Assembly: GCF_963676685.1 (NCBI RefSeq)
Contig: NC_092347.1
Location: 98,890,001 to 98,954,000 of the forward strand
DNA from: Mytilus edulis
Lineage: Eukaryota
Direction of reading: 5' to 3'
Length of the DNA: 64,000 nt
Shown: in pieces, positions 4,680 to 60,600 of the stretch
How the letters are laid out: each line of letters begins with the position of its first letter
Numbering within the stretch: the first letter of the stretch is position 1
Position numbers and translations under genes: made by a program
The notes under the pieces: model-generated
The model's database searches: none
Told to the model about the DNA's origin: nothing
Seen by the model: the letters and a program-made list of their open reading frames with translations, nothing else

Positions 4680-4786
4680 TTTGTGGTAATATGTATAATA
4701 CATCATATTTCATTATGAAAAGAACAATATATAAGGGTTCTCGAACCATACATTCAGCACAACACTGTACCATCGCACAAAATCAA
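4680..4786 (+). promoter_or_regulatory. Core promoter and non-coding exon 1 of paralog 1
   Basis: TTGTGGTAA..TGTATAATACATCA block, TATATAA 4728-4734, Inr-like CATTCAG (~4756), donor caa|gtaagt at 4787; block conserved upstream of all five paralogs. Confidence 0.8.
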
Positions 4787-7654
4787 GTAAGTTTCTTTAC
4801 AAAATTAACTATATTCATGATATTGTCTGTTAATTTAACTGCTCCATCGCAATTTATAGTATTCAACTTTTGACGATTTTTTAAGTTGAGAAAATTATGT
4901 CTTTGTCATTTTAGACAATCACACGATATTTGTGTTGTTACTACTATAAGTTTGATAAAATATTTTTGTATCACTAAACAATGCATTAGAAATCAAGAAG
5001 TCAAAGCTTACAGCAGTCAGCAATAAAATATCCACTTTTCTTTGAGATGAAACTTGATATTTAACAGTTCTTTCATTTCTAGATAAAATCAATGTATTTT
5101 AAATGACCTGCTATTTCTATGTCCTTTGTGGTCGTCCTTTTGTGAAATATTCGGCTTTGAGTGTTCCATATGAAGGACAATTCAGAAAAACTCTCTTGAA
5201 GCACAAAATTTGTTAAGTGTTATTTTCATTTCTATCGTGAGTATTATAAAAGTGCAAAATAATATAAATTATCTATAGAAGAACAACATGATACATAGTG
5301 TCAACTAGACCAATTTCTAATAAAAACAATATTATATTAGTAAAGTGAGATCGAAAAGGTAAAACCAAAATAATTGTTTGACAAAAATGAACGTTTTAAG
5401 TAGGTAAAAATTAGTTAAAAAAACGTCAAAGCGATTTATGAAGTTTGGAAAATATGCAGATGAAAACCCCATGATTACCAAAGAAATTATTACACGTGCA
5501 ATTCAGTTATATAAACTACTTCTAAGTATAAAATTATTCGGTTTACAATTTGTCATGAGCTAAATCCACTAGAGTATGAAAAACGCACCAAAAACAGTGA
5601 TATTGCTTCTTTCAAGGTTTTATGCTGTTCTAAAGATGGATATTTTTCAAATGGTGCAATTTTGTCAAAAAAGATGCAAAAGACGCCAGAGTGGAATTAA
5701 ATATTATAAGTAGAAATAAAAACTGACAATACCGTGACAAAAACGAAATGCGACAAAAAGAACGAAACAAAACTGTAAAGAACATTTTATGTGATTTTTT
5801 ATCATTACATAAATCTATTGGCTTGAATAACAATAAATTAAGTTTACTCATTATCAAAGGCTGTAGGGTGACCTGTTATTGTTTATACGTTTGTCTTTTG
5901 GTGCTTGTGAATAGTTTTCCAAATGGTAATTGAACCATAGTTTTATATAAATGTTTATTTAAAGCACATATCGAAAACTATTTTGAATGAAACTTCAATA
6001 TGTTCAATTTGATGTCTTCGACCCAATGACGTTTTGACATTACCATAGTTTGATATATTTATTTAAGGTAAATATCAAATACAATAGTTTTGAGTGAAAT
6101 TTCAATATTATCAATTTAATATCTTCGACCAAATGACTTATCGTTTTGACATTACCTTTCTATAGTGAAACTAACAATACATATCTGTGATTACTGTTAC
6201 CGACACTTGGACCTACTCCTTGAAGTCTGATAAAATACAATAAATTAGAAGGGGGAATTATCTCATGGGCCATACCACTAGTCTGATGTTTACAATTGAA
6301 TTCAGACCATGAGATAAAGGGCTGTGTGTTTTACGTAGAATCACTCTACAGATTAATAATGTAATCACGTAATAAAACATCTGTAGCCTTTCTTTAGCGA
6401 AAACTACAATAAAATCACTGTGAAAATATGATGAAAAAACTTTATGTATGACAACTTTTACTACTGATTGGCACACGAATGAAAGACATTTGTGCAAACG
6501 AAACGGTCAAACTTTACAACACACTATTGTTTTGGGGGTTCTCTTATTAGAGGTTTCTCAACATCTTCCGAACGAACGAAAATTGACCTACCTTGACGTA
6601 ACTTGCCGTAACGAAAAAAGAGGGAGCATTCATTTTGAGTCGTAGACATATTATATTGACTTGATATATATAATATATGTAATTGATCAATAAATTATGG
6701 CGAGGAATATAAAATATTTAGACCCAGGACAGCAATGTGTATGGTTTATATTCGTACAAATTTTAGTATTTATAAAATTATTTTATTTCGGTTTTTTTTC
6801 GTTGAGTTTTAATGGCATGCTGTATATGTTTCTTCGGTTTATATTTTTCTTATTTTTTCTATTTACTGTAGGAATAGAATTTAAAGAAAACGAACCTTTT
6901 AAAAACTATGTAACTATCAGTTTTGTTGGTGCAGTAGCACTCATACTTTCAACAAGAATACACAAAACTCTATTACTTTATGATTGATCGAATGCACCTT
7001 TATATTTCTGTAACTAATTCCAAAAATAATTTAAAGCAAGTCGGACCAATTGGACATTTTTTGTTTGGTGCTTATTTCTAGAAGACATAATTTACCCAAA
7101 CTCACCATCCTTTATTCGATCCATATTTATAAGGGATGTATGGATATTTTAAAAGAAAATACTAAACTTGTGTCATCTAAAAAACTTTTTAATCCTTTTA
7201 CAAACACTAATCTCGTCGGGAAATACTTGTCACAGAACGTTAAACATCTAACAATCAATCAAATGAAATGCAAACCAGACGCCCGATTGTTTTTAACAAC
7301 ATTACAAACTGACATGTTCTTTTTAAATTGATAAGGGAGATAAATCAAACGCATATATTCGACATGTAACCAAACGAAACTCAACGTAAGAATACGTAAC
7401 ATGCAACAGCAGAAAATAAATTGGAACATCGATGTTTAACCACAAAATTAAAATGCAAGGTGGTAAAAAGACTATGCAATTGTTTACCGTTGTCTTTCAA
7501 CACACTACAATATCGCTAAACATTTATTGTGGATTTTATGATCTAAATAACTGCTCCTTAACGCTACGTTCGTAGAGTTTCGTTCGTTCGTAAGATGTTG
7601 ACAAACCTCTATTAAGTACTCTGTAATAAAAAAAAAAATCTTTTCTATTGAAGA

Positions 7655-9340
7655 ATGCAGATCTTAGTCGGTATACTCCTGGTTATTTGTAGCGCAGTCA
7701 GCGCATCCTATAAAGGAGGATATGGCGGTTATGGAGGTGGATACGGAGGATACGGAGGTGGATTCGGTGGTGGGTTCGGAAGAGGATACGGAGGATACGG
7801 AATCGGAGGTGGTTACGGAGGATATGGAATCGGAGGTGGATACGGAGGATATGGAATCGGTGGTGGATACGGAAGATACGGTGGAATCGGAGGTGGATAC
7901 GGTGGCGGATACGGAGGCGGATATGGAAAAGGAAAAGTTGTTGTCGTTAAAGGATATGGTGGTTATGGTGGTTTAGGAGGTGGATATGGTGGTTATGGTG
8001 GATATGGTGGCGGTTATGGTGGACTAGGAGGTGGATATGGTGGTTATGGTGGTTACGGAGGTGGATTAGGTGGTATTGGAGGAGGATATGGTGGTTACGG
8101 TGGTGGATACGGATACGGAAAGGGCAAAGGTAAGATATTGTATACTTTAAATTATCATTTGACAATTACTTAATGTATAGATTGTATAGGTTTTATTCAT
8201 TCATTTGTTTAAAGCCTATACAGGTTTCTGTCAGAATGTCAAAGGATACAATACGCCTTCTTAAAAGGGAATATACATTGCAGCCGTCAAATAGATGACA
8301 TATATAAAAACAATATAAAAGTTTTGTTTTATCCCTATTGATTTCACTTACGTTCTAAGAATCCGTAGGAAGTCAGTATCAAACCACATTAAATATGGTG
8401 TAAATCATCATTTACATGTTCAGGACTAAATTCTTTGTAAAAATATTCAAGGGTTTTGCAAGGGTAAAAAGTGAGACGTTTTAATTCACAAACAAACTGT
8501 AGATTCTTCAGAGTTGAATTATTTCCCTTGTTTAAAATTATCCGAGTTTAATACTATGACGTAAACATAAAGTAAGGTTGACTAGATTATTGAATTATTG
8601 AATTTTTGATATTTTAAACAGATATCATTACAGGTAATCTTCACACTTTGCAAGAAGTGAGGTGACTGACAAAAACATTAGTTTCGTCAAAATAAACAAC
8701 AGAAAGTAAAACTAAGTACGCAAAACTTCGGAAGAAATTAGCCAAGTGAAATGCAAACAGTATTATTTAACTTGAATTTGATTATATGTGATATAGCTTT
8801 ATTGTTAAAAATGAAGATGTATTATCAATGCTTATACCAAGCCATTCGTTTGATGTGTTTGGGCTTTTGATTTTGCATTTGTTGAGGTACTTTCCGTTTG
8901 GAATTTCAATTGTAGGCCGCTTTTATGCGTATATAATAAAAAAAAAAAAGGAAACACAAAAAATGTAAAATATAATTTTGTTTAAAAAGTCTGATTAAGT
9001 ACAAAATCAACAATGCAAAATGATAAGTGTTATTGTGCCATGGTAAATGTTTGTTTATACATTTGTTTTGTCAGTATAATCGAATTTTATGCGATTGTTA
9101 TACAAGTGAGAGGTTTATATAGCTATTAAACCAGGTTGGATCCACCACTTTCTAGTTCCAAGACACGAATATTATAGGTGTTGTCCATTCGTTTGATGTG
9201 TTTGAGCTTTTGGTTACGCCATTTGATTAGTAGGGACTTTCCGTTTTGAATTATCTTCGGAGTTCAGTATGTTAGAGATTTTACTATTTTCGTAAAACCG
9301 ATGTTATAAGATATTTTCATTTTATTTTGCAGGATATTAA
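7655..9340 (+). CDS. Secreted glycine/tyrosine-rich structural protein, paralog 1 (shematrin-like), 160 aa; coding exons 7655-8129 and 9333-9340
   Basis: Signal peptide MQILVGILLVICSAVSA followed by SYKGGYGG and GGYG/GGLG repeats. Acceptor ttgaag|A-ATG; phase-1 donor AAAG|gtaag at 8130; last exon ttttgcag|GA TAT TAA gives ...GKGKGY*; AATAAA at 9395-9400. Same structure in four other paralogs. Confidence 0.9.
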
Positions 9341-10923
9341 ACAGACTCTCATCCAATAGAACTACAAAGGATATTATTTTTTTACATTTATGATAATAAA
9401 ATATAATCATGCATTGCATTTGTGTTGTCGTCTTCTTTCATAAATTTATTATACTGTCTTAGATTCAAGCACCTTCACTCTTGTCGAGATGAATTGTCGT
9501 AAGAAGAAAACGCATTATTATAAAATCAATATTGAGCTAAAATATTTCTCTAGATCATGGAAATTAGTTGGAATTCATCATATATGTAGATAACTGGTAA
9601 CGTATCGTACCTTTAACGAACGCAACCACGACTCTGTTGCACTTTGATGTTTCTGCTGTTTCGTTGTTTACCTTTTATATTTGATTTGTTCCCTCACTTT
9701 TAGTTTGTTACGGTACCCGGATTTGTTTTCTATCAATCAATTTATGATTTTCGAACAGGGGAATACTACTGTTGCCTTTATCAAAGCGTTGTCTGTAGCA
9801 CACCCTATTGATAATATGACACTGATAAACTCTTTACATCCTTTAAATTACAGAATGGAGTAATCCTTTCTCATGATTGCATGTATGCCTTAACACAACT
9901 TTCTCGATTTTTTCGGAGGGTAATTATTAACAAGAGAAAGATGCATTTTAAAAAATCATGAAACGAAAACGACAAGACAATGAATTTAAAACAACGAAGG
10001 ATATATCTTAAAAAGTAAAGTATTTATGTTGACCCCTGATATAAAACCTGATTATATAAAATGTCAATAAAAATAAAATGGCGTACCAAAAAGGCTACTA
10101 ACAACAGAATGTAAAAATATCCTATAATTGATCAAACTGAACAATTACAAAACTCCATGTCCCGTGTCCTGTAAATTCATTTATTATTTATGAAATGTTC
10201 GATTATGTTGAACACTAAGGATTTTCTCCTGTTGAAGTCTACCTTAGCCCTTGTTTTTGGCTGACATTATCTGTCCTTGCGGTCATAAAACTTTCGAGTC
10301 AGTTTTTTTGTACTCATACTCGAAAATCAACCAATGAAATTGCTTGATTTCTTGTTCGAGCATGATTTTTGTGCTCCAAGCACTGAGCAAAGTTTTATGC
10401 CTTCAAGGCCTGGAATAAAGGTTTGTTAAGCTCTTCAGTGTCGTATTTTTTACGGCTTTCCAACTATTCGATGAGTTTTATTAAGACAAAACAGGCGTAG
10501 GGCGTACACATTTATACGCCCGGGTAATACTCGCATGCGTCCAGCACATCTATATCGGACCCAATAATATTTATGGATATTTTCAAACAACACATAAGAA
10601 CTTTTTATATATATTTACATCTAAGGGGGACTCAAGTTGCCGAATTTCCGTTGATAAGCATAAGCTTGCTATATGATGAATTTTACTTTCCGTGATTTTA
10701 TCTCTTTAATGAATAATTCAAATATTGTTGACATGATTTAACAAACTTTAGTAAAATTGTCCGTTTATAAATTTATGAATTCTTAAGAAACTAAAGTTTC
10801 AACTCCCTCAGGCAAAGTTGGCTTTAGATGAATTTGGCTATTTATTTAAGGTATTTTTGACATATAGCTCTTCAACGGTTTCGGCAACTTATACATCTTC
10901 GGATTTCAAATGTTTGGCTTTAA

Positions 10924-14790: not shown

Positions 14791-16664
14791 TTAATATCCT
14801 GAAAAATAAAAAAAAGATAAATAATATAGTTTAAGACAACATAGGCTTTATTCTTATCATTTTGTGTTGTATTGGCGTTTATGTGTTTATGACAATTTAT
14901 AAATTCAGTGAAATCAACAAAATTCATTATATAAATAGCAGATAATCATTTCGGAGATCTTAAAATATAAGATCTGAATGTTATTGTATCTCTTCTTTAT
15001 TTAATAAATGACATGAAAGTAATTTACGACAAACGAACCGAGGAACATTTTTAAGAAGAAGCCATTATTACAAAAAGGGGAGGTTTCTTGTTTTGGTCTT
15101 TTTTTATGAAGCCCAACAAATATATATCTTTTATTCAAGTATTGATCAAATACCTATGACATGAAGTATAAGCCTACATAATGGTTTGCTCACCACGGGA
15201 GATTTCAATACTGTTAATTTAATACTGAAAATCATTTTAACGATCTGCATGTTCAGATTAGAGTATCAAATGTTATCACATCTATGTAAGTCTTATTTGG
15301 GTAAGTGCATAAATACACGGTCGGCTGATTGTAGTTTCTTCCTCTAATCAGATATTTCGGTATAATCCCTATTCTATTTTTTTCATCCCGAACATATAAT
15401 TTTGTTTTTACTGCAGTTCAGCGTTTCCTTTCATAGATGATGTGCTTTCCTCTATTATATTTTGTACCCGGATTTTTTTACCTCTCAATTTATGACGATT
15501 GAACAGAGATATACTGTACTACTGTTGCCTTTTAAGATAGGTGTTAGGATCTTACATAAATTTTTGTTTGAAAATATTGATTGATATGCTAAACTTGTTC
15601 CTACGTAGATATAACTGATAAACAAATGACAATTACAATAGCTTCTTCTTTCGATGTTTTGATTCGAACTGTGTTTACAAACATCTTAAAGTTCTGTGTT
15701 GTTTGTATTCTTTCTTCTTCGTGTTATTTCATGCGAGTGGTAAGGTTTTTTTAAGGAAGAAGTATACTATGGATTTCTGATAACAACTTTGCATATGTAT
15801 TCTGTAATTTTACTATGAATAAGGCATGCTGTCAATTGTATATAGCAATGTATGCAGAAGTAAGGTAATGGTATGTTAATATCACAACGGTAAATGAACA
15901 CATATATGTAAATCATTAGTTGACCAAAACAAATCCAGTTAAGAAATAAAAGTTTTAAAATTATTTGAGGCAAACATTATCTTACCTTTGCCCTTTCCAT
16001 ATGCATAACTATTCAAACCACCATATCCACCTAGTTTACCACCTAATCCACCTCCGATTCCTCCTAATCCACCTCCGATACCACCAAGTCCACCTCCGAC
16101 ACCTCCAAATCCACCTCCGATACCACCAAATCCACCTCCGATACCACCAATTCCACCTCTGATACCACCGATTCCAACACCGTAACCACCATATCCTTTA
16201 ACGGGTACTTTTACAACAATAGCTTTTTTGTATCCTTTACCGTATCCGCCATATCCACCCCCGAGTCCACCTCCGAATCCGCCACCAAGTCCAACTAATC
16301 CTCCTCCGTATCCACCCCCGATTCCATATCCTCCGTATCCACCACCGATTCCGTATCCTCCGTATCCACCTCCGATTCCGTATCCACCACCGTATCCACC
16401 ATATCCTCCTCCATATCCACCTTTACCGTATCCACCATATCCTCCTCCATATCCACCTTTACCGTATCCACCAACTCCAATACCCCACAATCCCCCTCCT
16501 AATCCTCCTCCTAATCCACCTCCTAATCCACCTCCTAATCCTCCTCCTAATCCTCCTAATCCTCTTAATCCTCCACCGTATCCTCCGTATCCGCCATATC
16601 CTCCTTTATAGGATGCGCTGACTGCGCTAACGATAACCAGGAGTATACCAGCTAAGATCTGCAT
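14791..16664 (-). CDS. Secreted glycine/tyrosine-rich structural protein, paralog 2, 228 aa; coding exons 16664-15986 and 14798-14791
   Basis: Signal peptide MQILAGILLVIVSAVSA; GGLG, GGYGI and GGIGG blocks; KKAIVVKVPVKG motif. Donor AAAG|gtaag at 15985; last exon ttttcag|GA TAT TAA. Confidence 0.88.
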
Positions 16665-18207
16665 TCTAAATAAATAATACTTATCTATATGAAACCCTGT
16701 TTAGATATTAACAATATAAAGGTACCTTACAGTTAAAGCTGTAGCGGTAAGAACATTGTTAACAGCTTTAGTATAATGAATCTATATTCAAGTGTTAAAA
16801 AAAGATCTGCATTCTGCAATAGCCCAGATATCTATAAATTAATGATATTTATAAAGAGAATTTTAAAGAATTTCGAAACTCATATAAATGAAGTAAAATT
16901 TGATTAAAATTAAATGTTTATAATGTATATGCAAATATAGGCACCACTAGCATGCCGCTGTTCAAAGGTCATCAATCGATTAAGAGAACAAAAAAAAAAT
17001 CCGAGTTACAAACTAAAACTTGGGGAAACACATCAAATATAAGGGGAAAACAACGAAACAACAGAAACACTGAAGTGCAAAAAAAACAAACAAAGGACAA
17101 TGCAATATACTTAGAAACAAAATATAAGATAACAACTGCAATATTCCTGACTTGGCACAGGACAAATCCGATGATCTTTACCAAAAAAAACATTAAAAGT
17201 AAAATTGATCGCTAATATTATGCACTTATGTTTAAAAAAAAAAAGACCACAGAGGATTAATGATATCACAGTTATTGTTCAATACGACACGCATACAATC
17301 CTCTTTCTAATTTTTGTAAATTAAATTGTAAAAATTCAACTTAATATATAGACCCCAGATAATTTTACCAATCTTAAATATTTACATAACATGTTTATGT
17401 TCTCAATTTTATTTTATAAATGATTTTTATCAGACTTCGTCGGATACTCCCAGGGTCGGTAAAAATGTCAACAGATATGTTTTGTTTGTTGAAATTATTT
17501 CAAGTCACAAAGACATTTTCAAACGATAAATATGAATGACGTTATGTCATTCAATTCAATCACGGTTGAGAGGGTTTTTTTTATTGAAGTTTGCCTACAA
17601 CTTTTTAAAATTTTATTTAGAAATGATTAGACAATTTTTGTCACTTGTATTATTTCAAACTTCATACATTAACCATGTTAACTAAACTTGTTCTCTAAAA
17701 AAATATCACTTCTTGCAAATACCTTTATTTTAATTGTTCAATCAATTTCATCTCACTTTTGATAATGAAATCATAAGAATGTTAGATATTAACATGGTAG
17801 ATTTTTTAAACTATTGATAATACACTTTCCGTTGCCATTTCTAGGACTTATCAAAATCGTTAAAAAAATTCGTTACATCAGTTTTCATCTAGAGATAAGA
17901 AAAGACACGTTCAACTTTAAATAATTTTGAAAAACACTGCCAGTTCATTTTCTTTGTCGACAAAGCGGGCTTTAGCCCAGCTACATGCCTGCATTCGAAG
18001 AAGTAGTTTAAAAGAGGGACGAAAGATACCAGAGGGACAGTCAAACTAATAAATCGAAAATAAACTGACAAAGAATGGCAATCTTAAAAGAGAAGATTAG
18101 AATGGTATATAGTCTTGATTTCATTAACGATTAATAGGTTCTTTGACTACTAATGTTTACTAATTTTTTGGTATTTCAAAAGATGTGCAGTATTTACTTC
18201 TACGAGA

Positions 18208-18502: not shown

Positions 18503-18620
18503 CTGATTTGATACGGTGGTTCAGTTATGTGCTGAATGTACTTGCTATTGGTTCTAGACGTCTTATATATATTGCTCATTTCATAATACAATTTGATGTA
18601 TTATACATTTTACCACAAAT
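18503..18620 (-). promoter_or_regulatory. Core promoter and non-coding exon 1 of paralog 2
   Basis: Reverse-strand TTGTGGTAA block, TATATAA 18569-18563, TACATTCAGC, donor cag|gtaagt at 18502. Confidence 0.8.
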
Positions 18621-22484: not shown

Positions 22485-22601
22485 TCGTGGTAATATGTAC
22501 AATGATACATCAAATTGTATTATGAAATTAGCAATATATAAGGCTTCTAGAACCAACAGTAAGTACATTCAGCAAAATACTGAGCCACCGTACAAAAACA
22601 G
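22485..22601 (+). promoter_or_regulatory. Core promoter and non-coding exon 1 of paralog 3
   Basis: GTGGTAA block, TATATAA 22535-22541, TACATTCAGC, donor cag|gtaagt at 22602. Confidence 0.8.
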
Positions 22602-23795: not shown

Positions 23796-24182
23796 ACATC
23801 AATATCGTCACGAAAGGCTGACACAGGATGATTTCAATTGATTGTTATAACCAGGTACATGATTATTAGGTTTTCATATGTATATCAAAATCAAAATCAT
23901 TCTAAATCTAGACAGTATTCAGCAAAAGTGTTACTGCATAAATTTAGTATTATTAAGAAACGAAATTTCAATATATCAGTTTCTATTGTTTGACCAATTA
24001 CTGTAATTTCTGCCATCGTTTTGATCCTTATTTATCTAGCTATAGAGAAAACACAAACAATAAAAAACATTTATCATTTTTACCAATCCTGCCAATCATA
24101 GTCAAACTTAACTTCCGGCTTTTGTATTCGAGATTCTCTTATTAAGTACTCTGAAACTAAGAAATTTCTTCTCTATTGCAGA

Positions 24183-25717
24183 ATGCAGGTCTTATTCGGA
24201 ATTCTCCTGGTTATCTGTAGCGCAGTCAACGCATCCTATAAAGGAGGATATGGCGGTTACGGAGGTGGATACGGAGCAATTGGAGGATACGGAGGTGGAT
24301 TAGGAGGTGGATTAGGAGGTGGATTAGGAGGAGGATTAGGAGGAGGTTTAGGAGGAGGATTAGGTGGAGGATTAGGAGGGGGATTGTGGGGTATCGGAGT
24401 TGGTGGATACGGTAAAGGAGGATATGGAGGAGGATATGGTGGATACGGTGGAATCGGTGGTGGATACGGTGGATACGGAATCGGCGGTGGATACGGTGGA
24501 TATGGAATCGGTGGTGGATATGGTGGATATGGAATCAGAGGTGGATACGGAGGATACGGAATCGGTGGTGGTCTAGGCGGCGGATTCGGAGGTGGACTCG
24601 GGGGCGGATATGGCGGATACGGTAAAGGATACAAAAAAACTATTGTTGTAAAAGTACCCGTTAAAGGATATGGTGGTTACGGTGTTGGAATAGGTGGTAT
24701 CGGAGGTGGATTAGGTGGTATCGGAGGTGGATTTGGTGGTATCGGAGGTGGATTTGGTGGTGTCGGAGGTGGACTTAGTAGTATCGGAGGTGGATTAGGA
24801 GGAATCGGAGGTGGATTAGGTGGTAAACTAGGTGGATATGGTGGTTTGAATAGTTATGCATATGGAAAGGGCAAAGGTAAGATAATGTCTACTTCAAATT
24901 ATTATTAAACTATCATAATTTCACTGGATTTCTATTGCTCAACGAATAATGTTTATTCATATATGTGTTTGGTTACAGTTATCATATTGATATATCATTG
25001 TTTAACTTCTACATACATTGCTTTATATTGTAAAATTGATGACATGTCTTATTCAGAGTAAAATGTATCAATCTATAGTTTGATTTCCCCATTACTGCGG
25101 AATACATATGCACATTATTTTGTCAGAATTCCACAGTATGCGACTACCTATAACAAAATGTTACCATATAAAATAAAAGAAAGTTCCCATTAAAACATCG
25201 ATGAAATATGCTATTGCAATTATTATCTGTTTTCTAACTATATCTACTATATATAAAGTTTGAATAGATTCCATATTCTTAACAAATGTTAGTTATATCC
25301 CTACATACATCTGTACTAATTATGGTCTGGATAAACCAATATGATTATGAATTATATTAAAATATTAAAAGGGAGTAAACAAATATTAGAAGTATTTATA
25401 TAAATTGTTAGGCTACACAAAAAACTAAAATAAAAAAATATTGACCTGCACATTTTGCAATATTGGCAGAAGGCTTCTTCCTAAACACACGGCGTGAATT
25501 GCTTAAATTTCGTTCATCAAAAAGATAACATCGTTCAAATCTTATGTTTACACAGTTCCGAAATAAAAGTTTTGTCCTTTTTTGATACAATGAATCAGAT
25601 TGAATTCACGGACTCAACAAGTTGACATAAATACAAAAATGAGAGCAAAAATGATAACTTCGTAAAGCTAATTCTACACTGTAAATATATATCTGTTTGT
25701 TTTTTTCAGGATATTAA
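24183..25717 (+). CDS. Secreted glycine/tyrosine-rich structural protein, paralog 3, 233 aa; coding exons 24183-24876 and 25710-25717
   Basis: Acceptor ctattgcag|A-ATG; signal peptide MQVLFGILLVICSAVNA; donor AAAG|gtaag at 24877; last exon tttttcag|GA TAT TAA. Closest to paralog 2. Confidence 0.9.
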
Positions 25718-26057: not shown

Positions 26058-26714
26058 TTGATTACCTTACATTCTTCTTATTGTTGAATTCGAAGCGATC
26101 AAAGTGTTGTTTTTAAATTTGTGGTTTCCATGTTGGCTTAGTAGCAACATATCACTGTAAAATAAATTGAAGGTCTTAATTGTGTATGGTGGTTACCGCA
26201 TCTTTAATTCTTAGTGGTAACTTAAGAAATAAAACTAAACACAGTGGTAATTTATTGCTCTTTATTTTACACCAGTTTGATTACCTTACATTCTTCTAAT
26301 TGTTGAATTCGAAGCGATCAAAGTGTTGTTTTTAAATTTGTGGTTTCCATGTTGGCTTAGTAGCAACATATCACTGTAAAATAAATTGAAGGTCTTAATT
26401 GTGTATGGCGGTTACCGCATCTTTAATTCTTAGTGGTAACTTAAGAAATAAAACTACACACAGTGGTAATTTATAGCTCTTTATTTTACACCAGTTTGAT
26501 TACCTTACATTCTTCTAATTGTTGAATTCGAAGCGATCAAAGTGTTGTTTTTAAATTTGTGGTTTCCATGTTGGCTTAGTAGCAACATATCACTGTAAAA
26601 TAAATTGAAGGTCTTAATTGTGTATGGTGGTTACCGCATCTTTAATTCTTAGTGGTAACTTAAGAAATAAAACTAAACACAGTGGTAATTTATTGCTCTT
26701 TATTTTACACCAGT
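26058..26714. repeat. Tandem repeat, 3 x 219 bp
   Basis: ATTACCTTACATTCTTCT at 26061, 26280 and 26499; units nearly identical. Confidence 0.92.
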
Positions 26715-27949: not shown

Positions 27950-28425
27950 CTAGCGCACACAATATCGTTTGTTATGAATGAGGAACATATCTATATGAAA
28001 TCAATAGGTTGTAGCTAAAAATCCTCCACATGCTGTTGATAACTTTTTGGTAATGATTTATTAAAATATCCGTTGATATTTGTGGCATATATAATATATT
28101 TAACAAAAGTTTAATGACGGCTCCAAGTTCGTACGACTATTGGTACGGTAGCAAAGCGGGAAACCTAATACAAGATATTCACAGCTAAGCGCACACAATA
28201 TCTTTTGTTATGAATGAGGAACATAGCTATATGAAATTAATAGGTTGTAGCTAAAAATCCTCCACATACTGTTGATAATTTTCAGTAATGATTTATTAAA
28301 ATATCCGTTGATATATGTGGCATATATAATGTATTTAACAAAAGTTTAATGACGGCTACAAGTTCGTACGACTCTTGGTACGGTAGCAAACCGGGAAACC
28401 TAATACAAGATATTCACAGCTAAGC
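27950..28425. repeat. Tandem duplication, 2 x ~236 bp
   Basis: AGCGCACACAATATC at 27952 and 28188. Confidence 0.85.
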
Positions 28426-32776: not shown

Positions 32777-33838
32777 TACAACTCGTCTAAACATCAACCC
32801 AACAATGTTAGATCTGTAAATTTGCTTTCGCAAATTTTTGGTTCTTCCCTCGCCGGGATTCGAACCCTTGCTACTGTGATATCGTGACACCAAATCGCCT
32901 GCACTGCAGCCGTCCCGCTAGACCACACGACCACCTGGGCTCTCAAAAAAAGAGCTTTCGGTGGTCATGTGTTACCTTTCCACGTCAGTTTTAATCTAGC
33001 GGCGTACTACAGTACATGATATATAAGGCATGAAGATGTTATTGTTACAGATCAGCTAAATTATCTATAGTAAATCCTACAAATTAATGTAAGATACAGT
33101 CACAGAAAATAATTATATTCATAAGTACGTCTGAGTCAGTGACAACCCTACAACAGATGTATCCATCGGATCGCCATCAATGATGGTGATACATGGCTGT
33201 GTACATAATGTATATACAACTCGTCTAAACATCAACCCAACAATGTTAGATCTGTAAATTTGCTTTCGCAAATTTTTGGTTCTTCCCTCGCCGGGATTCG
33301 AACCCATGCTACTGTGATATCGTGACACCAAATCGCCTGCACTGCAGCCGTCCCGCTAGACCACACGACCACCTGGGCTCTCAAAAAAAGAGCTTTCGGT
33401 GGGCATGTGTTACCTTTCCACGTCAGTTTTAATCTAGCGGCGTACTACAGTACATGATATATAAGGCATGAAGATGTTATTGTTACAGATCAGCAAAATT
33501 ATCTATAGTAAAGGATCCTACAAATTAATGTAAGATACAGTCACAGAAAATAATTATATTCATAAGTACGGCTGAGTCAGTGACAACCCTACAACAGATG
33601 TATCCATCGAATCGCCATCAATGATGGTGATACATGGCTGTGTACATAATGTATATACAACTCGTCTAAACATCAACCCAACAATGTTAGATCTGTAAAT
33701 TTGCTTTCGCAAATTTTTGGTTCTTCCCTCGCCGGGATTCGAACCCATGCTACTGTGATATCGTGACACCAAATCGCCTGCACTGCAGCAGTCCCGCTAG
33801 ACCACACGACCACCTGGGCTCTCAAAAAAAGAGCTTTC
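32777..33838 (-). repeat. Tandem array (~2.4 units of 438-441 bp) with three tRNA-like Pol III heads
   Basis: Near-identical units start at 32777, 33215 and 33656. Minus-strand GCCCAGGTGGTCGTGTGGTCTAGCGG (A-box-like) ... GGGTTCGAATCCC (B box) at ~32846-32940, 33284-33378 and 33725-33819. Confidence 0.8.
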
Positions 33839-36169: not shown

Positions 36170-36278
36170 TTTGTGGTAACATGTATAATACATCATATTT
36201 TTTTTTATAAAACGAACAATATATAAGGCTTTTAGAACCATACATTCAGCACAACACTGGACCATCGCACCCTATCAA
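36170..36278 (+). promoter_or_regulatory. Core promoter and non-coding exon 1 of paralog 4
   Basis: TTGTGGTAA block, TATATAA 36220-36226, CATTCAGCACAACACTGG, donor caa|gtaagt at 36279. Confidence 0.8.
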
Positions 36279-38404: not shown

Positions 38405-39299
38405 TTTAAACACATTGTTTTTCGAATAATCGAAAGAGTTGCAGTATAAAGAGAATACATCTAAGTTGTATCGAAATATACATTTTATTTTAGTAGGTAC
38501 AAAACATAGAATAAAAATGCACGACAAAAACGTATATTTTTTCTGTTTAATAGCCTTTAAAAAGCAAATTCCTAAGATAACTGAAATTCAAGTTTGAGTT
38601 TGGGCTGTTATCTTACTAGCTATAATGAAACAACAAACAGTTATAATCGTTAACCATTTAGTTAACTAAAACAAAAATGGATCACAGGTTTATTCCGACT
38701 TACCGACATTAACGGTTATCCCATTAAATAAGAAAAATAAGTGCTTTATATCCACGAACAAGGTCTGATTTAGTCTGTTACTGTTATAACAGATTTTAAT
38801 CGCTCGCTCTAACACACCATCTTGATCATTTTGTTATGCTTAAACGGACTGAATTGCCTAAAATGACTATCAATAAGAAAAGCGTCTAAAACATGCAAGT
38901 CTAAAAAAGTTTGAAAGTTTTTCTCTTGCAGTAAATTCAATCATTTAAGTTGATCAGGCAAAATGACCGTTTCAGACTAAATTATTGCTTCTAGTGTAAT
39001 CTAGTGTCGCGTATCTTTAATCTTCTGTTCAAATTTAAATTCACAACAAGAGATACAATATTGTATGTTTTACGTAGAAAACATTAAATTAAAATACTCT
39101 ATCACACAAAGTCTAGAGTTGAAGTTGTGACCATTAAATAGTATTTACGATTATTTTTACTCGTAAGATTGTTTTGTAAAGAGCTACTGATTACCACATG
39201 CACGATCAAGTTTTGAAAACTTTACCTCAGAATGTTATTTTCAAAAATCTGAAACAATCTCCAATTAAATAATCTATAATATTTCTTGACTATTACAGA

Positions 39300-40376
39300 A
39301 TGCAAATCTCAGTTGGTATTCTTTTGGCTATCTTTGGCGCAGTCAGCGCATCCTATAAAGGAGGATATGGCGGTTACGGAGGTGGATACGGAGGATACGG
39401 TGGTGGACTGGGAGGATTAGGAGGTGGATTAGGAGGTGGATTAGGAGGAGGATTAGGAGGAGGATTGTGGGGTATTGGAGTTGGAGGATATGGTAAAGGA
39501 GGATATGGTGGATACGGCGGATATGGAATCGGAGGTGGATACGGAGGATACGGAATCGGAGGTGGATACGGAGGTTACGGAATCGGAGGTGGATACGGAG
39601 GATATGGCATCGGAGGTGGATATGGTGGATATGGAATCGGAGGTGGATATGGTGGAATTGGTGGTGGATACGGAGGATATGGAAAAGCCGTTGTTGTGAA
39701 AGTACCAGTATCTGTAGGATATGGCGGTTATGGTGGTATCGGAGGTGGATTCGGTGGTGTCGGTGGTGGATTCGGTGGAATCGGAGGTGGATTAGGTGGT
39801 ATCGGAGGTGGATTAGGTGGTATCGGAGGTGGAATTGGTGGTGGATATGGTGGTTTGAACAGTTATGCATACGGAAAGGGAAAAGGTAAGATAATGTCTG
39901 CTTTAAAAAAAAAAATTCTGACTAAATTTTATGGATCAACGGATGGTTCACATTATTAATTGGTTTAAATACATATTAAATATTGACGTATCATTTGCTA
40001 ACTTCTGCATAGATTGTTGAACATTGCAATATTGATGACATGTCTTATTCAGAGGGAAATACTTGATTAAATTGTTGTCAGTTTCATACATACATTCGTG
40101 TTATTACAGCAGTCGTTGTTAGAATTTCACATGATGACATTTCTGCCGAAAATGGGAGCCGTTATATTTAAAAAAAAATACTTTGATTCATTAAACATTA
40201 TATCAAACTTTTGTTTTCTCAAGAAAAAAATATTTCCTCTTCTAATTTTCTATTGTCTTAGATTGATTTAACTGAATAATGAATTTGACATAAATACGAA
40301 ACTTCAAACCATTATATGAACTCCATAAAGCCAATGCTATGCAATTAAATATATTTTTTGTTTTGCAGGATATTAA
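39300..40376 (+). CDS. Secreted glycine/tyrosine-rich structural protein, paralog 4, 197 aa; coding exons 39300-39885 and 40369-40376
   Basis: Acceptor tattacag|A-ATG; signal peptide MQISVGILLAIFGAVSA; donor AAAG|gtaag at 39886; last exon ttttgcag|GA TAT TAA; AATAAA at 40434-40439. Confidence 0.9.
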
Positions 40377-52247: not shown

Positions 52248-52354
52248 TTTGTGGTAACATGTATAATACATCATATTTTATTATGAAACGAACAATATAT
52301 AAGGCTTCAAAAACCATACATTCAGCACAACACTGGACCATCGCACCATATCAA
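52248..52354 (+). promoter_or_regulatory. Core promoter and non-coding exon 1 of paralog 5
   Basis: TTGTGGTAA block, TATATAA 52296-52302, CATTCAGCACAACACTGG, donor caa|gtaagt at 52355. Confidence 0.8.
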
Positions 52355-53152: not shown

Positions 53153-53682
53153 TAAAAAAAATGATAAGTAGTAAATAAACCCTATTATTCTTTCATGAAT
53201 TAAAGACTTTACACTTAGTAACTAAGAAGTGATCTGTTGAACCGTCACATTATTTCTGAATTTCACGCTGTACCTTTTCTAATACGTACATGCATATTCC
53301 GTTATTAAATTTCATTTATTGCGTCCTTTCAAATCGACTGGAAATGATTTTCAGATTAATTTTACATTTTATACGCAAATCATTCCGTTCTATTATCTAA
53401 ATAAAAGCATATGTGATACATTTTGAAGGAGAACTATAAAAGTGGCAATGAAAATTTAATTGTCAATGAGAAAACAAAATAATGAATACCCTCAGGTATA
53501 CATTAATAAAAGTTACATAAGATGATTGAAATATATTAAAATGTAGGTGTTTCAAGTGGTGGTCCTTCTTTGAAATAACAAACTAAGGCAGTACTTGTAC
53601 CGATTAAAATAAACTGTCTTTTAAATAAATGCCATTTAAATTATTCTGAGTTGCTGTTAATGTCAATAAGACAGCAATCAAA

Positions 53683-54325
53683 ATTTATAAAACAAACGAC
53701 GCCTAGTTGTCACCGTACAGACAATAAAAAGAGAATTTCAAATATTTTGTTTTTCAATATCACACCAACTTGATCCACGATATATGCTCGGGGATTCTGT
53801 AAGTAAAGGATCGATGCTGTGTGTGATTTTGGAAAACAATAAACAATTCATTATACCTCTTAAGTATATGTTTGAATTTTCCCCTGAACAGTACACAGGA
53901 AAATATTTTGGACCAAAAAAAAGTTAAATAGTATTAAATTGGAAGCAAGCTACTCCAACCTATTGCATATACAGAATTTAAAAGCTATCCGAATTCTACA
54001 ATATTTATAAAACAAACGACGCCTAGTTGTCACCGTACGGACAATAAATAGAGAATTTCAAATATTTTGTTTTTCAATATCACACCAACTTGATCCACGA
54101 TATATGATCGGGGATTCTGTAAGTAAAGGATCGATGCTGTATGTGATTTTGGAAAATAATAAACTATTCATTATACCTCTTAAGTATATGTTTGAACTTT
54201 CCCCTGAACACTACACAGGAAAATATTTTGGACCAAAAAAAAATTAAATAGTATTAAATTGTAAACAAGCTACTCCAACCTATTGCATATACAGAATTTG
54301 AAAGCTATCCGAATTCTACAATATT
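53683..54325. repeat. Tandem duplication, 2 x 320 bp, in intron 1 of paralog 5
   Basis: ATTTATAAAACAAACGACGCCTAGTTG at 53683 and 54003; single copy in paralog 4 (~37870). Confidence 0.88.
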
Positions 54326-55250: not shown

Positions 55251-56011
55251 AAGTAAGAGTTGCAGTATAAAGAGAACGATTCTAAGTGATATCGAAATTA
55301 AAACATTTTTTTTTTTAGTAAACACGGAATATTTCAAGATTTTGTATAATTCTTTTTTGAATATATAGCAATTTCCTTAGTACTTTGCGATGACTGAAAT
55401 TCAAGTGAGCGTTTGGACTTTTTTTTATCTTTCTAGCTATAATTAAAACAACAAAATCTTTTACCATTTATTGGACTTAAAATGTAGTTGTATATATAAC
55501 AAGATTAAAGGGTTTTTCAAAATTACCAAAATTGACAGTTATCCCATTAAATATGAAGAAACATATATATCTTAAAAGTGCTGTAATATCCTAGAACTGA
55601 AAAAAGTTTTGAAGTTTTTCCCTTGCAGTAAATTCAATCATTTGACTTGATCAAACTAAAATGACCGTTTCAGACTGAATTCTTGCTTCTAGTGTAATCT
55701 AGTGGCGCGTATCTTTAATCTTCTGTTCAAATTCTATAAATTCACAACATGAGATACAAGATTGTATGTTTTACGTAGAAAATTAGTATATTCAAGTACA
55801 CAAAGTCTTTAAAAGGATTGAAGTTGTGACCATAAAATAGTATTTACGATTATTTTTACTCGTATAATTTTTTTAAAGAGCTACTGATCACCACATGCAC
55901 GATCAAATTTTGAAAAATGACAAAACTTAACTTCAGAATGGTATATAAAAAAAACTGAAACAAGCTCCAATTAAATAATCCATAACTTATATATTTCTTG
56001 ACTATTACAGA

Positions 56012-57076
56012 ATGCAATTCTCAGTTGGTATTCTCTTGGCTATCTTTGGCGCAGTCAGCGCATCCTATAAAGGAGGATATGGCGGATACGGAGGTGGATA
56101 CGGAGGATACGGTGGCGGATTAGGAGGGGGATTAGGTGGAGGATTAGGAGGAGGATTAGGAGGAGGATTGTGGGGTATTGGAGTTGGTGGATACGGCAAA
56201 GGAGGATATGGTGGATACGGCGGATATGGAATCGGAGGTGGATACGGAGGATACGGAATCGGAGGTGGATACGGAGGATACGGAATAGGTGGTGGATACG
56301 GAGGATATGGAATCGGAGGTGGATACGGAGGATATGGAATCGGAGGTGGATATGGTGGATATGGAATCGGAGGTGGATATGGTGGAATCGGTGGTGGATA
56401 TGGAAAAGCCGTTGTTGTTAAAGTACCAGTATCTGTAGGATATGGCGGTTATGGTGGTATCGGAGGTGGATTCGGTGGTGTCGGTGGTGGATTCGGTGGA
56501 ATCGGAGGTGGATTAGGTGGTATCGGAGGTGGAATTGGTGGTGGATATGGTGGTTTGAACAGCTATTCATATGGAAAGGGAAAAGGTAAGATAATTTCTA
56601 CTTTAAATGATTGTTTTATCATTATTTTTCTGACTGGAATTTATTGATCAACGAATTGTTTACATTCCTTAATTTGTTTGAATACATGTTAAATATCATT
56701 CGCTAACGTCTGCCTAGATTGTTTTACATGGCAAAATTGATGACATGCCTTATCCAGGGGAAATACTTGATTAAATTGTTGTCAGTGTCATACATACATT
56801 CGTGTAATTACAGCAAAAAGATTGTGCAAGTTTTTTTTTAAAGAATTCCACATGATATATTTCTTTTAAAAAGGAAAACGTTATATCTAAAATACTCTGA
56901 TTCATAACACCTAATTTCAAACATTGTTTCTCGAAAAAAAACTAATATTTTCTCTTCTAATTTTATATTGTTTTAGATTAATTTAACTGAATAATGAATT
57001 TGAATAAATACGAAAACTACAAATTATTAGCCAATGGTATGCTATAACATTTATATTTTGTTTTGCAGGGTATTAA
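56012..57076 (+). CDS. Secreted glycine/tyrosine-rich structural protein, paralog 5, 193 aa; coding exons 56012-56585 and 57069-57076
   Basis: Acceptor tattacag|A-ATG; signal peptide MQFSVGILLAIFGAVSA; donor AAAG|gtaag at 56586; last exon ttttgcag|GG TAT TAA (synonymous Gly); AATAAA at 57132-57137. Confidence 0.9.
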
Positions 57077-57692: not shown

Positions 57693-60600
57693 TTAACCAA
57701 TTATGCTCGATCCCCCAGATCCACCAATACTACAATGTAAGTGTATAAATTACAAATCCAGAAAAAATAGGTGTCGAGAAGTAATTGCAAGTCTCAAGTA
57801 CGCTTTTGTAAATACAGATTTTTATATGAAAAAACAACAGATTTTGTCTACCAAAAAAATGTCAACTACAGATAATTTTTATTTATAAATTTAGTGCATT
57901 CACATGTACTTAGACGTTTTAATGTATCTGAACCGAAGAAAAGGTGGTGGATGATAACTACGCAAAATTCAAAACTAATGAAATAGGAATAGAATCCCAC
58001 CAAAACCTAGGAGTGAATATGTGTAATCTGGGAGTGTATATGTGTTCTCCGGGAGTGAATCAGTGTGATCCAGGAGTGTTTAAGTGTGATCCGAGAGTGT
58101 TTGTGTGTGTAATCCGGGAGTGTGTGTGTGTAATCCGGGAGTGTGTGTGTGTGATCCGGAAGTGTGTGTGTGTAATCCGGGAGTGTATGTGTGATCCGGG
58201 AGTGAATATGTGTGATCCGGGAGTGAATATGTGTGATCCGGGAATGAACTTGTGTTCTCCTGGAGTGAATAGAAAAAACAAAAAAATACTTAACTCCGAG
58301 GAAAATTCAAAACTCAAAATCAAAAGCTCAAATACATCAAACTAATGAATAGCAACCGTCATATTCCTGAATTGGTACAGGCATTTTCTTACGTAGAAAA
58401 TTGCGGATTGAACCTGATTTTATAGCTAGATAAACCTCTCACTTTTATGACAGACACATCAAATTTCATTATATTTTCAACGATGCGTGAGCAAAAGAAA
58501 CCAGACATAATAGGTAAAAATGTCAAATATACAGCAGTCAACATTATTTAATAATCTTTTAAATCATAAAAAAACAAAACAAAATTTTAATATGCATCAA
58601 AGAAGCACAAAATGGCATGAATTTCACATAGTACAGTAACACAACGACGGGATGTATAACTACAGAGCCATGCCATACATGTAACAAAAGGCAAATAGAC
58701 AAAGCACAAAGCAAAAAATAAAAGACGAGTAGCAAACAAGTTTTACAATAGCTCAATAACTGGATTTATAAGCACAGAGTCACGCCACATGAATACGAGA
58801 ATAGCACTAACAAAAATGACCAGACGTACAAGTACCACAAGCATCTTAATCACAACAAAAACAAACAAATATGTAACAACTATGTGTGATACGGGAGTTA
58901 ATTTGTGTGTTCCGGGAGTGAATATGTGTGATCCAGAGGTTAATTTGTGTTCTTTTAATGTGATTTAGTGTGATCATGGAGAGAATTTGTGTGATCCGAG
59001 AGTGATTGAGTGTGATCCGGGAGTGAATATGTGTGTGATCCGGGTGTGTATGTGTGATCAGAAAAAGAATATGTGTGATCCTGGAGTGTATGTGTGATCC
59101 AGGAGTGAATTTGTTATCCAGGAGTGAATATATGTGATCGGGGAGTTAATATGTGTGATTTTGGGAGTGCATGTGTAATCTGGTCGTGAATATGTGTGAT
59201 CCGGGAGTCAATGTGTGTGATCTGGGAGTGAATATATGTGATCCGGGAGTGAATATGTGTGTGATCTGGGATTGTATGTGTGCATGACCTGGGAGTGAAT
59301 ATGTGTGATCCGGGAGTCAATGTGTGTGATCTGGAAGTGAATATGTGTAATCAGGGAGTGAATATGTGTGATCCGGGAGTGTATATGTGATCTGGGAGTG
59401 ATTTTGTGTTCTCCTGGAGTGAATATGTGTGATCCGGGAGTGAATTTTTGATCTGGGAGTGAATTTGGTTCTCCTGGAGTGAATTTGTATGATCTGGATA
59501 GACAGAACAATATGTATGTTTTTGTTACAATTAGGAAAAGAAGAATTGTTTCCCTATCTTATTTTCCTATATGCTAGGGTTTCGTTTTCATAAACTATAT
59601 GTTTTAATAAGTATATAACTATTGCTGACCTCTTTTCGCATACAAAGTAAAAATGCAAGTCACACGAATGATCATTCCAGTGAAGTTTACCATCATCGTA
59701 TATACGAGTATCGAGACAGTTTTCTCCTTTGTGTCCATTTGGTTCATGTGGCCCCCAATCAGTTATATCAAATTCATGGTTACTAGTGCTCCAGATAAAC
59801 GTTCCTTCTGTATTGATATCATTTGCACCAAGCCAAAAATTATCTGAAAATGTTTTTCTTGTTCGTATTATCATATTTGGCCATACAAGATTTTTTTCAA
59901 GAGAAAATTGAATGTGCTATTTTTAAAGTTGAAAATTACGCTTATGAAACAGTTCTATCAAGATTGAAATATTTCACTTATATAAAATATGAAAACAACG
60001 CTTTATGCACTGCATAAGTCTGCAGCGCTTTTATTGATATACCTCCATCGAGAACACTCGAAGCCGAGTATTTTTTTTGAAAGTTAAATTGATAACAACC
60101 TAAATTTTGCCAATCTCTGTAAAGCTGAATCTCTGTATGTGCCTTTCTCAAGTCAGGAGCCTGTAATTCAGTGGTTGTTGTTTGTTTATGTATTACATAT
60201 TTGTTTTTTTCGTTCATTTTTTTGTACATAAATTAGGCCGTTATTTGTGTCGTTTGAATTGTTTTACATTGTCATTTCGGATTCTGTTATAGCTAACTAT
60301 GCGGTATGGGCTTTGTTGAAGGCCGTACGGTGACCTATAGTTGGTAATTTCTGTGTCATTTGGTCTTGTGGAGAGTTGTCTCAGTGGCAATCATATCACA
60401 ACTTCTTTTTTTTTATATTTTCCTTAACGAGGCTCGTTTGATATACTTCTTTTTTTATGATATGCTATATTATAGCACCGTTTTCTGTATCATTTCAAAA
60501 TATTTGTTTATACTACAATTACACAGATATATATATCCTCGCTGGGCTTCCTAAATGACGTATATGACTTTTTTTGGCTAAAACTACTTTTTAATACAAA

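Follow-up and report, generated by a model that had tools for sequence, protein, structure and literature searches.

Short last coding exons and shell proteins that end in Tyr are each ordinary. Many bivalve shell-framework proteins have such an end, and we found no tested reason for it in the literature. In a stretch of 64,000 nucleotides of Mytilus edulis DNA (NC_092347.1, positions 98,890,001 to 98,954,000; the whole stretch is hereafter the window), a sequence-only reading had pointed to five paralogs whose last exon contributes only Gly, Tyr and a stop, and had proposed that splicing installs a C-terminal Tyr kept by selection. The locus thus raises three linked questions: is the Gly-Tyr end really made, is its Tyr under selection and, if so, what could this residue be for?

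The window contains five genes with Gly/Tyr-rich products (g1, 160 residues; g2, 228; g3, 233; g4, 197; g5, 193), g2 on the minus strand and the others on the plus strand (Table 1). Every one of them has three exons, a non-coding exon 1, a large exon 2 and a tiny terminal exon, so that the middle exon carries all codons except the last two. Exon 1, which was absent from the earlier reading, is a non-coding, ATG-free segment of 37 nt with a GTAAGT donor in all five paralogs, and it lies together with a conserved TATA box 1.6-3.7 kb 5' of each ATG. At g1, the fit of an X6 contig starts at 7654, the first base of exon 2, with 30 preceding letters unplaced. The terminal exons of g1 to g5 can be aligned over ~100 nt, and the alignment includes a poly(A)-type hexamer (+61 to +66) followed by a GU-rich element around +90. 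Tandem repeats (21, 219, 235, 441 and 320 nt) occupy intergenic DNA at 58010-58271, 58881-59494, 26058-26714, 27952-28425, 32777-33838 and 53679-54325.

Table 1. Features of the five window genes (window positions; coding part only for terminal exons).
Feature	Position	Strand	Remarks
g1 TATA box and non-coding exon 1	4728..4786	+	TATA box 4728-4735, exon 1 ~4750-4786; kept in 5/5 paralogs; putative start site
g1 exon 2	7654..8129	+	ATG 7655; predicted signal peptide, Gly/Tyr repeats, YGKGK and first G of split codon
g1 last intron	8130..9332	+	phase 1, 1203 nt, GT-AG; skipped by X1 contig; fully covered by DNA-type run X17
g1 terminal exon, GA TAT TAA (Gly-Tyr-stop)	9333..9340	+	
g1 3' UTR	9341..9415	+	AATAAA 9395-9400; GU-rich element ~20 nt beyond; X1 contig matches as far as 9415
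g2 TATA box and non-coding exon 1	18503..18569	-	kept in 5/5 paralogs
g2 exon 2	15986..16665	-	ATG 16664; 228-aa product
g2 terminal exon, GA TAT TAA	14791..14798	-	
g3 TATA box and non-coding exon 1	22535..22601	+	kept in 5/5 paralogs
g3 exon 2	24182..24876	+	ATG 24183; 233-aa product
g3 terminal exon, GA TAT TAA	25710..25717	+	
g4 TATA box and non-coding exon 1	36220..36278	+	kept in 5/5 paralogs
g4 exon 2	39299..39885	+	ATG 39300; 197-aa product
g4 terminal exon, GA TAT TAA	40369..40376	+	
g5 TATA box and non-coding exon 1	52296..52354	+	kept in 5/5 paralogs
g5 exon 2	56011..56585	+	ATG 56012; 193-aa product
g5 terminal exon, GG TAT TAA	57069..57076	+	

As had been proposed, exon 2 closes on an AAAG|gtaag donor in all five genes, and the acceptors stand at the first base of each terminal exon (Table 1), as cag|GA TAT TAA in g1 to g4 and as cag|GG TAT TAA in g5. 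Splicing across the last introns (1203, 1187, 833, 483 and 483 nt for g1 to g5, respectively) gives a YGKGKGY-stop C-terminus in each case, and no hidden internal exon was found in any of these five introns. Among the YAG sites scanned, the acceptor used here has the most T-rich tract in four genes and is tied in g1. In 200 shuffles of base pairs, the T-tract acceptor pattern appeared 0.005 times on average and never more than once per shuffle, compared with five times in the window; the genome as a whole shows no enrichment (172 matches vs 294 for the reversed control), and at least 16 genome matches, among the first 100 listed, fall within 240 kb of the cluster. Altogether, these genes almost certainly splice to the Gly-Tyr-stop terminal exon, which is borne out by a junction contig from run X1 and by RefSeq models of neighbouring gene families. 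The warning that gene predictors may miss this end proved half right: GenBank P0001 and P0025 are wrong, and the ends of RefSeq P0021, P0024 and P0029 are right. The read-through tails exist with the sequences described earlier, but their hydrophobicity carries no weight because any AT-rich intron gives such tails.

We then looked for the g1 junction in four runs fitted on region 8030-9470 (61 further joints exist beyond those listed; the RNA type of the runs is a guess, and contig depth was not taken as an expression level). One 328-nt RNA-type X1 contig, which stems from another animal, follows the exon end to 8130 and continues in the terminal exon, the joining letters being exactly those predicted. 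In contrast, X17, a DNA-type run, covers 30 of 30 bins of the region and has no g1 terminal joint among those listed; X2 and X9, without cover over most of the unique g1 intron and without a join among those listed, were left out of the count. On its exon 2 side, the X1 contig is identical to g1 where A4, a sister gene upstream of the window, differs at 4 of 82 bases, and in the terminal exon it carries all seven A4 differences; this mosaic indicates an allele or a sister gene of g1/A4 type, not the g1 of this assembly. The junction evidence proposed earlier as a check was therefore obtained with the exact letters, but as one mosaic contig of a single run. For g2, an X1 contig ceases to fit at 15985 and leaves 92 letters unplaced, which roughly matches the terminal exon in length (the join is not displayed). 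A wide read comparison yielded no terminal junction among the 15 listed of its 89 joints, most of the listed joints being repeat-derived. A related transcript end in X2, a loose end at window position 7933, reads YGKGGY-stop with TAC TAG and matched the genome with none of three patterns; it perhaps comes from a gene missing from the sequenced individual.

The conserved Gly-Tyr terminal exon is broader than first reported. In 454 kb fetched around the window, we found 22 related or co-located genes spread over ~280 kb. Of the nine genes in family A, four lie upstream of the window, and all nine end in YGKGKGY. Families B (eight genes), C (one) and D (four) lie downstream and are mutually similar by tblastn; their bodies are rich in Asn, Ser, Gly, Arg and Trp, and no tblastn match links them to family A. 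The eight B genes and the C gene end in R/L/N/Q-Gly-Tyr via G|GN TAY stop, so that 18 of the 22 genes (A, B and C) reach Gly-Tyr-stop through the same phase-1 terminal exon, while the four D genes keep the intron and end in Trp via a split T|AA stop. A profile search returned 18 hits, RefSeq models from three Mytilus species among them, and these agree with the predicted ends: P0021 (M. galloprovincialis) ends in RGY, P0024 (M. californianus) in NGY and P0029 in RW, as in D. RefSeq models of the B/C/D type contain an extra exon with a furin-like RxKR/RxRR site. This extra exon rules out direct joins of exon 2 to the terminal exon in B, C and D (RRY, SY and QYLS/N ends), and it makes the RRKY read-through of D2 an intron sequence.

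Several other observations were made in and around this cluster. Between family A and families B-D lies an exon of a C-type lectin gene (window 59557-59916, minus strand; Pfam PF00059, E 1e-10). The 13 B/C/D genes (G000:C4:98965747-99126040, L013-L029) encode small predicted secreted proteins that belong to no Pfam family and match only uncharacterised Mytilus models; their furin-like site would release a cationic peptide of 40-55 residues rich in Gly, Arg, Trp and Ser, and such peptides could be matrix or antimicrobial peptides. A GA TAT TAA terminal exon with a B-type UTR at G000:C4:99043746 (L020) is separated from gene B6 by DNA in which no coding exon was found; it is a relic or else an alternative last exon for B6, in which case the GY end would be unchanged. 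In D3 (G000:C4:99115437, minus strand, L028), the repeat exon is frameshifted in this assembly and codon 81 is a stop, and database model P0025 reads the exon after the repeat exon in another frame. A Gly/Arg/Trp-rich terminal exon with GGRGGWGGGF repeats and a YRG-stop end lies at G000:C4:98961650-98961790 (plus strand, L012), its upstream exons not being located. Finally, ENA/JGI contigs (P0026-P0037 and P0044-P0059) hold a C-like subfamily with a best identity of 51% in this genome; another mytilid thus probably has the same cluster.

Is the terminal Tyr under selection? Across the eight coding bases of the 18 A/B/C genes, we counted five changes (GGG, GGC, TAC, TAG and TGA), all of them synonymous: Gly is GGA in 16 genes and GGG and GGC in one each, Tyr is TAT in 17 and TAC in one, and the stop is TAA in 16 and TAG and TGA in one each. 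In contrast, positions +9 to +14 of the terminal exon vary freely across the same genes. Over the tree, the UTRs accumulated 3.9 substitutions per site, and a clock based on them predicts 9.4 Tyr-breaking changes where none is seen (P 8e-5) and 7.2 stop-breaking changes where, again, none is seen (P 8e-4), a calculation that takes no account of rate variation, works from a gapped alignment and presumes common descent for the terminal exons of A and B. This descent is suggested by what these exons share, namely phase, position, a T-tract/AC/ATAAA motif and bases 1 to 8, with blastn finding only 25-27 nt matches between them; with two separate origins, a GY that arose twice would in turn be an argument for selection. 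In a more cautious count, 12 of 97 UTR columns are invariant across the 18 genes, which leaves a probability of only ~0.015 that the two invariant Tyr bases are so by chance. The five window genes alone show no selection (2.35 Tyr-breaking changes expected, P ~0.10), and the case that had been made from them holds only once 13 more genes with the Gly-Tyr end, located beyond the window, are added. The synonymous change in g5 that had been cited is present but lies in the Gly codon, whose two G's are splice consensus. G|G is the usual splice context; the conserved Gly is thus weak evidence and partly a by-product. Altogether, these counts argue that purifying selection has probably acted on the C-terminal Tyr.

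The same data have to be weighed against the idea that Gly-Tyr is a mere passenger, with the start of the exon held by splicing, the genes young or gene-converted and the Gly supplied by the G|G context. The TAT triplet has no coding role in D yet is kept in all four exons (P 0.17 if neutral), leaving room for a constraint at the RNA level; the mosaic of g1 and A4 in the X1 contig hints at gene conversion; and both the invariant UTR columns and the result for the window genes alone point in the same direction. Family A does carry an ATTAAA overlapping the Tyr-stop, but this is not a conserved poly(A) signal, since the B genes differ there and the contig continues to 9415. Moreover, in three of the four D genes the old stop reads TTA, a decay expected once an earlier split stop had taken over. 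Set against this, coding changes that are synonymous without exception, next to bases that vary freely and UTRs that diverged extensively, make the passenger explanation unlikely. Were it correct, the feature would amount to a short last exon of the ordinary kind within a shematrin-like cluster.

Two further proposals concern the intron rather than the residue. An intron kept near the stop could expose frameshifts in the repeat-rich exon to nonsense-mediated decay, the Tyr being incidental: after a +1 shift, translation meets a stop over 50 nt short of the junction from 118 of 138 codon positions in g1, 187/206 in g2, 192/211 in g3, 152/175 in g4 and 148/171 in g5, the shifted frames encode long Arg/Trp/Ile-rich peptides, and D retains the intron within its stop codon. 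Nevertheless, +2 shifts are caught less well (45/175 in g4 and 0/164 in A3), the conserved Tyr is left unexplained and, to our knowledge, junction-dependent decay is not established in molluscs, all of which renders this proposal improbable. Regulated retention of the intron as an alternative giving hydrophobic tails seems more remote still: the read-through frames are open for 9-23 codons beyond the donor, but the tails are dissimilar past GKI, none of nine read-through proteins occurs in a 15-billion collection, and the X1 contig skips the intron. The last intron is best read as an inherited position rather than as a device that installs the Tyr.

What, then, could the Tyr do? Gly makes up 60-65% of family A proteins, which contain 26-32 Tyr and neither Asp nor Glu, and their hydrophobic N-terminus is a predicted signal peptide (by crude hydropathy only), which suggests that the cluster proteins are secreted. 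In mussels, the periostracum is quinone-tanned and its Gly-rich, basic protein, periostracin, carries DOPA (PMC3821031); tyrosinases are up-regulated during M. edulis shell repair (PMC8194122); and tyrosinases have buried sites and are selective for flexible Tyr tags at a terminus, SG4Y and G4SGGY among them (PMC12257508, PMC9647846). These engineered tags likewise consist of a Gly linker and a free terminal Tyr that tyrosinase oxidises, although they are artificial, sit on folded proteins and were used with fungal or bacterial enzymes, so that they are only an analogy to the mussel ends (PMC12257508, PMC9647846). Taken together, tanning, DOPA, tyrosinase in repair and tag selectivity favor a cross-linking handle. 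The proteins would be secreted, and those of B and C also cleaved by a furin-type enzyme; the free terminal Tyr would then be the site oxidised first, to a quinone, by tyrosinase or peroxidase; and this quinone would form bonds with Lys, His or further Tyr residues on adjacent chains, cross-linking the predicted secreted proteins into the organic layers of the shell. If selection on the Tyr is granted, such a role appears somewhat more likely than not; the complete proposal, selection for a tyrosinase or peroxidase cross-linking site in these layers, is plausible while falling just short of probable. The argument is stronger for B and C, whose proteins contain 5-10 Tyr, than for family A, where one more Tyr at the end need not be special given the 26-32 already present in flexible Gly-rich contexts. 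Nor can cross-linking through this residue be a necessity, as 4 of the 22 genes (family D, with P0029 as confirmation) end in Trp: the terminal Tyr is dispensable for one branch.

This end in D also suits another function, in which the Tyr is selected as a recognition or protection signal. A free-carboxyl Gly-Tyr end would be read by a sorting or assembly partner, or would serve as a cap that blocks basic carboxypeptidases from the Lys/Arg-rich tail in the secretory granule. Carboxypeptidase E trims terminal Lys and Arg, the furin-like sites of B, C and D make passage through a processing pathway likely, the Gly-Tyr motif is common to three families with different bodies, and in D the place of GY is taken by Trp, likewise aromatic, following Arg or Gln. 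Yet any non-basic residue would cap, whereas Tyr is never replaced in the 18 A/B/C genes, and we met no receptor for a Gly-Tyr motif in the literature, in searches that were not aimed at one. Recognition is therefore not our favored function, though it keeps some credit.

For the cross-linking role, the composition of periostracin offers the closest comparison. The M. edulis protein, known only by composition, is basic, of ~20 kDa, with 55% Gly and 10% Tyr plus 2.2% DOPA (about 12% together), and it was reported as still unsequenced in 2013 (PMC3821031). The products of g2 and g3 (18.2-18.5 kDa, 60% Gly, 12% Tyr, no Asp or Glu) differ from it by five points more Gly, while those of g1, g4 and g5 are smaller and richer in Tyr (21% in g1). 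By composition, g2 and g3 thus fit as sequence candidates for periostracin. A bolder version would make the terminal exon an exon-encoded tyrosinase tag, a Gly-Tyr-stop and 3' UTR cassette reused by three families for the same tanning reaction, and g2/g3 periostracin itself; we regard this combination as doubtful. The cross-linking role can be tested through the sharing of the end across different bodies, its natural loss in D and the fit of g2/g3 to periostracin. The cluster is a natural experiment in this respect, with 18 genes that keep Gly-Tyr, 4 that lost it and ends set by exon structure. The exact C-terminal peptides are now available for oxidation assays and proteomics, as are revised models where some annotations have the genes wrong and two periostracin sequence candidates.

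Beyond periostracin, the cluster proteins would work like the shematrins and KRMPs of pearl oysters. Shematrins of Pinctada are basic, mantle-expressed proteins with Gly-rich GnY repeats, and basic residues followed by a terminal Tyr (PMC3896809), and their genes are reported in tandem (PMC4759782). Family A shares the predicted signal peptide and, with GGGYGGYGI, GnY repeats followed by a hydrophobic residue; its nine YGKGKGY ends lack the shematrin tail signature (RKKKY, RRKKY, RRRKY or PRKKY; PMC3896809), as Gly precedes Tyr in the KGKGY found here. Pinctada KRMPs possess a region rich in Gly and Tyr proposed to be quinone-tanned (PMC4498902) and a terminal Tyr in HHRPKKY (PMC3896809 supplement). 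A Gly/Tyr region and terminal Tyr are present here, with KGKGY rather than RKYKY, RPKKY or RRKY as the tail, and the Lys/Trp/Cys-rich domain that follows the KRMP signal peptide is absent in all five window genes. Database searches were of little help: Pfam gave no family for five of five cluster proteins, whole g1 and its residues 1-40 found no match in protein searches, an alignment search gave one Mytilus hit in 19 rows, the others being low-complexity matches, and no Pinctada hit appeared in protein searches, which low complexity blunts. In the zebra mussel, shematrin-like proteins are likewise described as not alignable to Pinctada shematrins (PMC9210306). The available portions of PMC3325083, PMC4944945, PMC4498902, PMC4897951 and PMC9923487 contain no exon map of shematrin or KRMP genes. 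In our literature search, neither the GKGKGY end nor families B-D nor the shared terminal exon turned up; older shematrin papers may show a tiny last coding exon.

The body of family A has been seen before, in M. edulis mantle isotig 17419, which consists of the (GGGYGGYGI)n repeat and a YGKGKVVVVKG block (Freer et al., PMC3896809). As printed (supplementary files 14 and 15 of PMC3896809), this isotig is without a signal peptide and ends before the C-terminus, and its authors, in the available portion of the paper, looked for the tail signature in isotigs other than 17419 and gave no gene structure. Its published matches, one with MSI31 (acidic domain) and one with KRMP4 (Trp-rich domain; PMC3896809, file 15), arise from other frames of the Gly/Tyr repeat, and the same alternative frames are also open at window 7668-7973. 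Perhaps MSI31 itself owes its acidic domain to a frame artefact.
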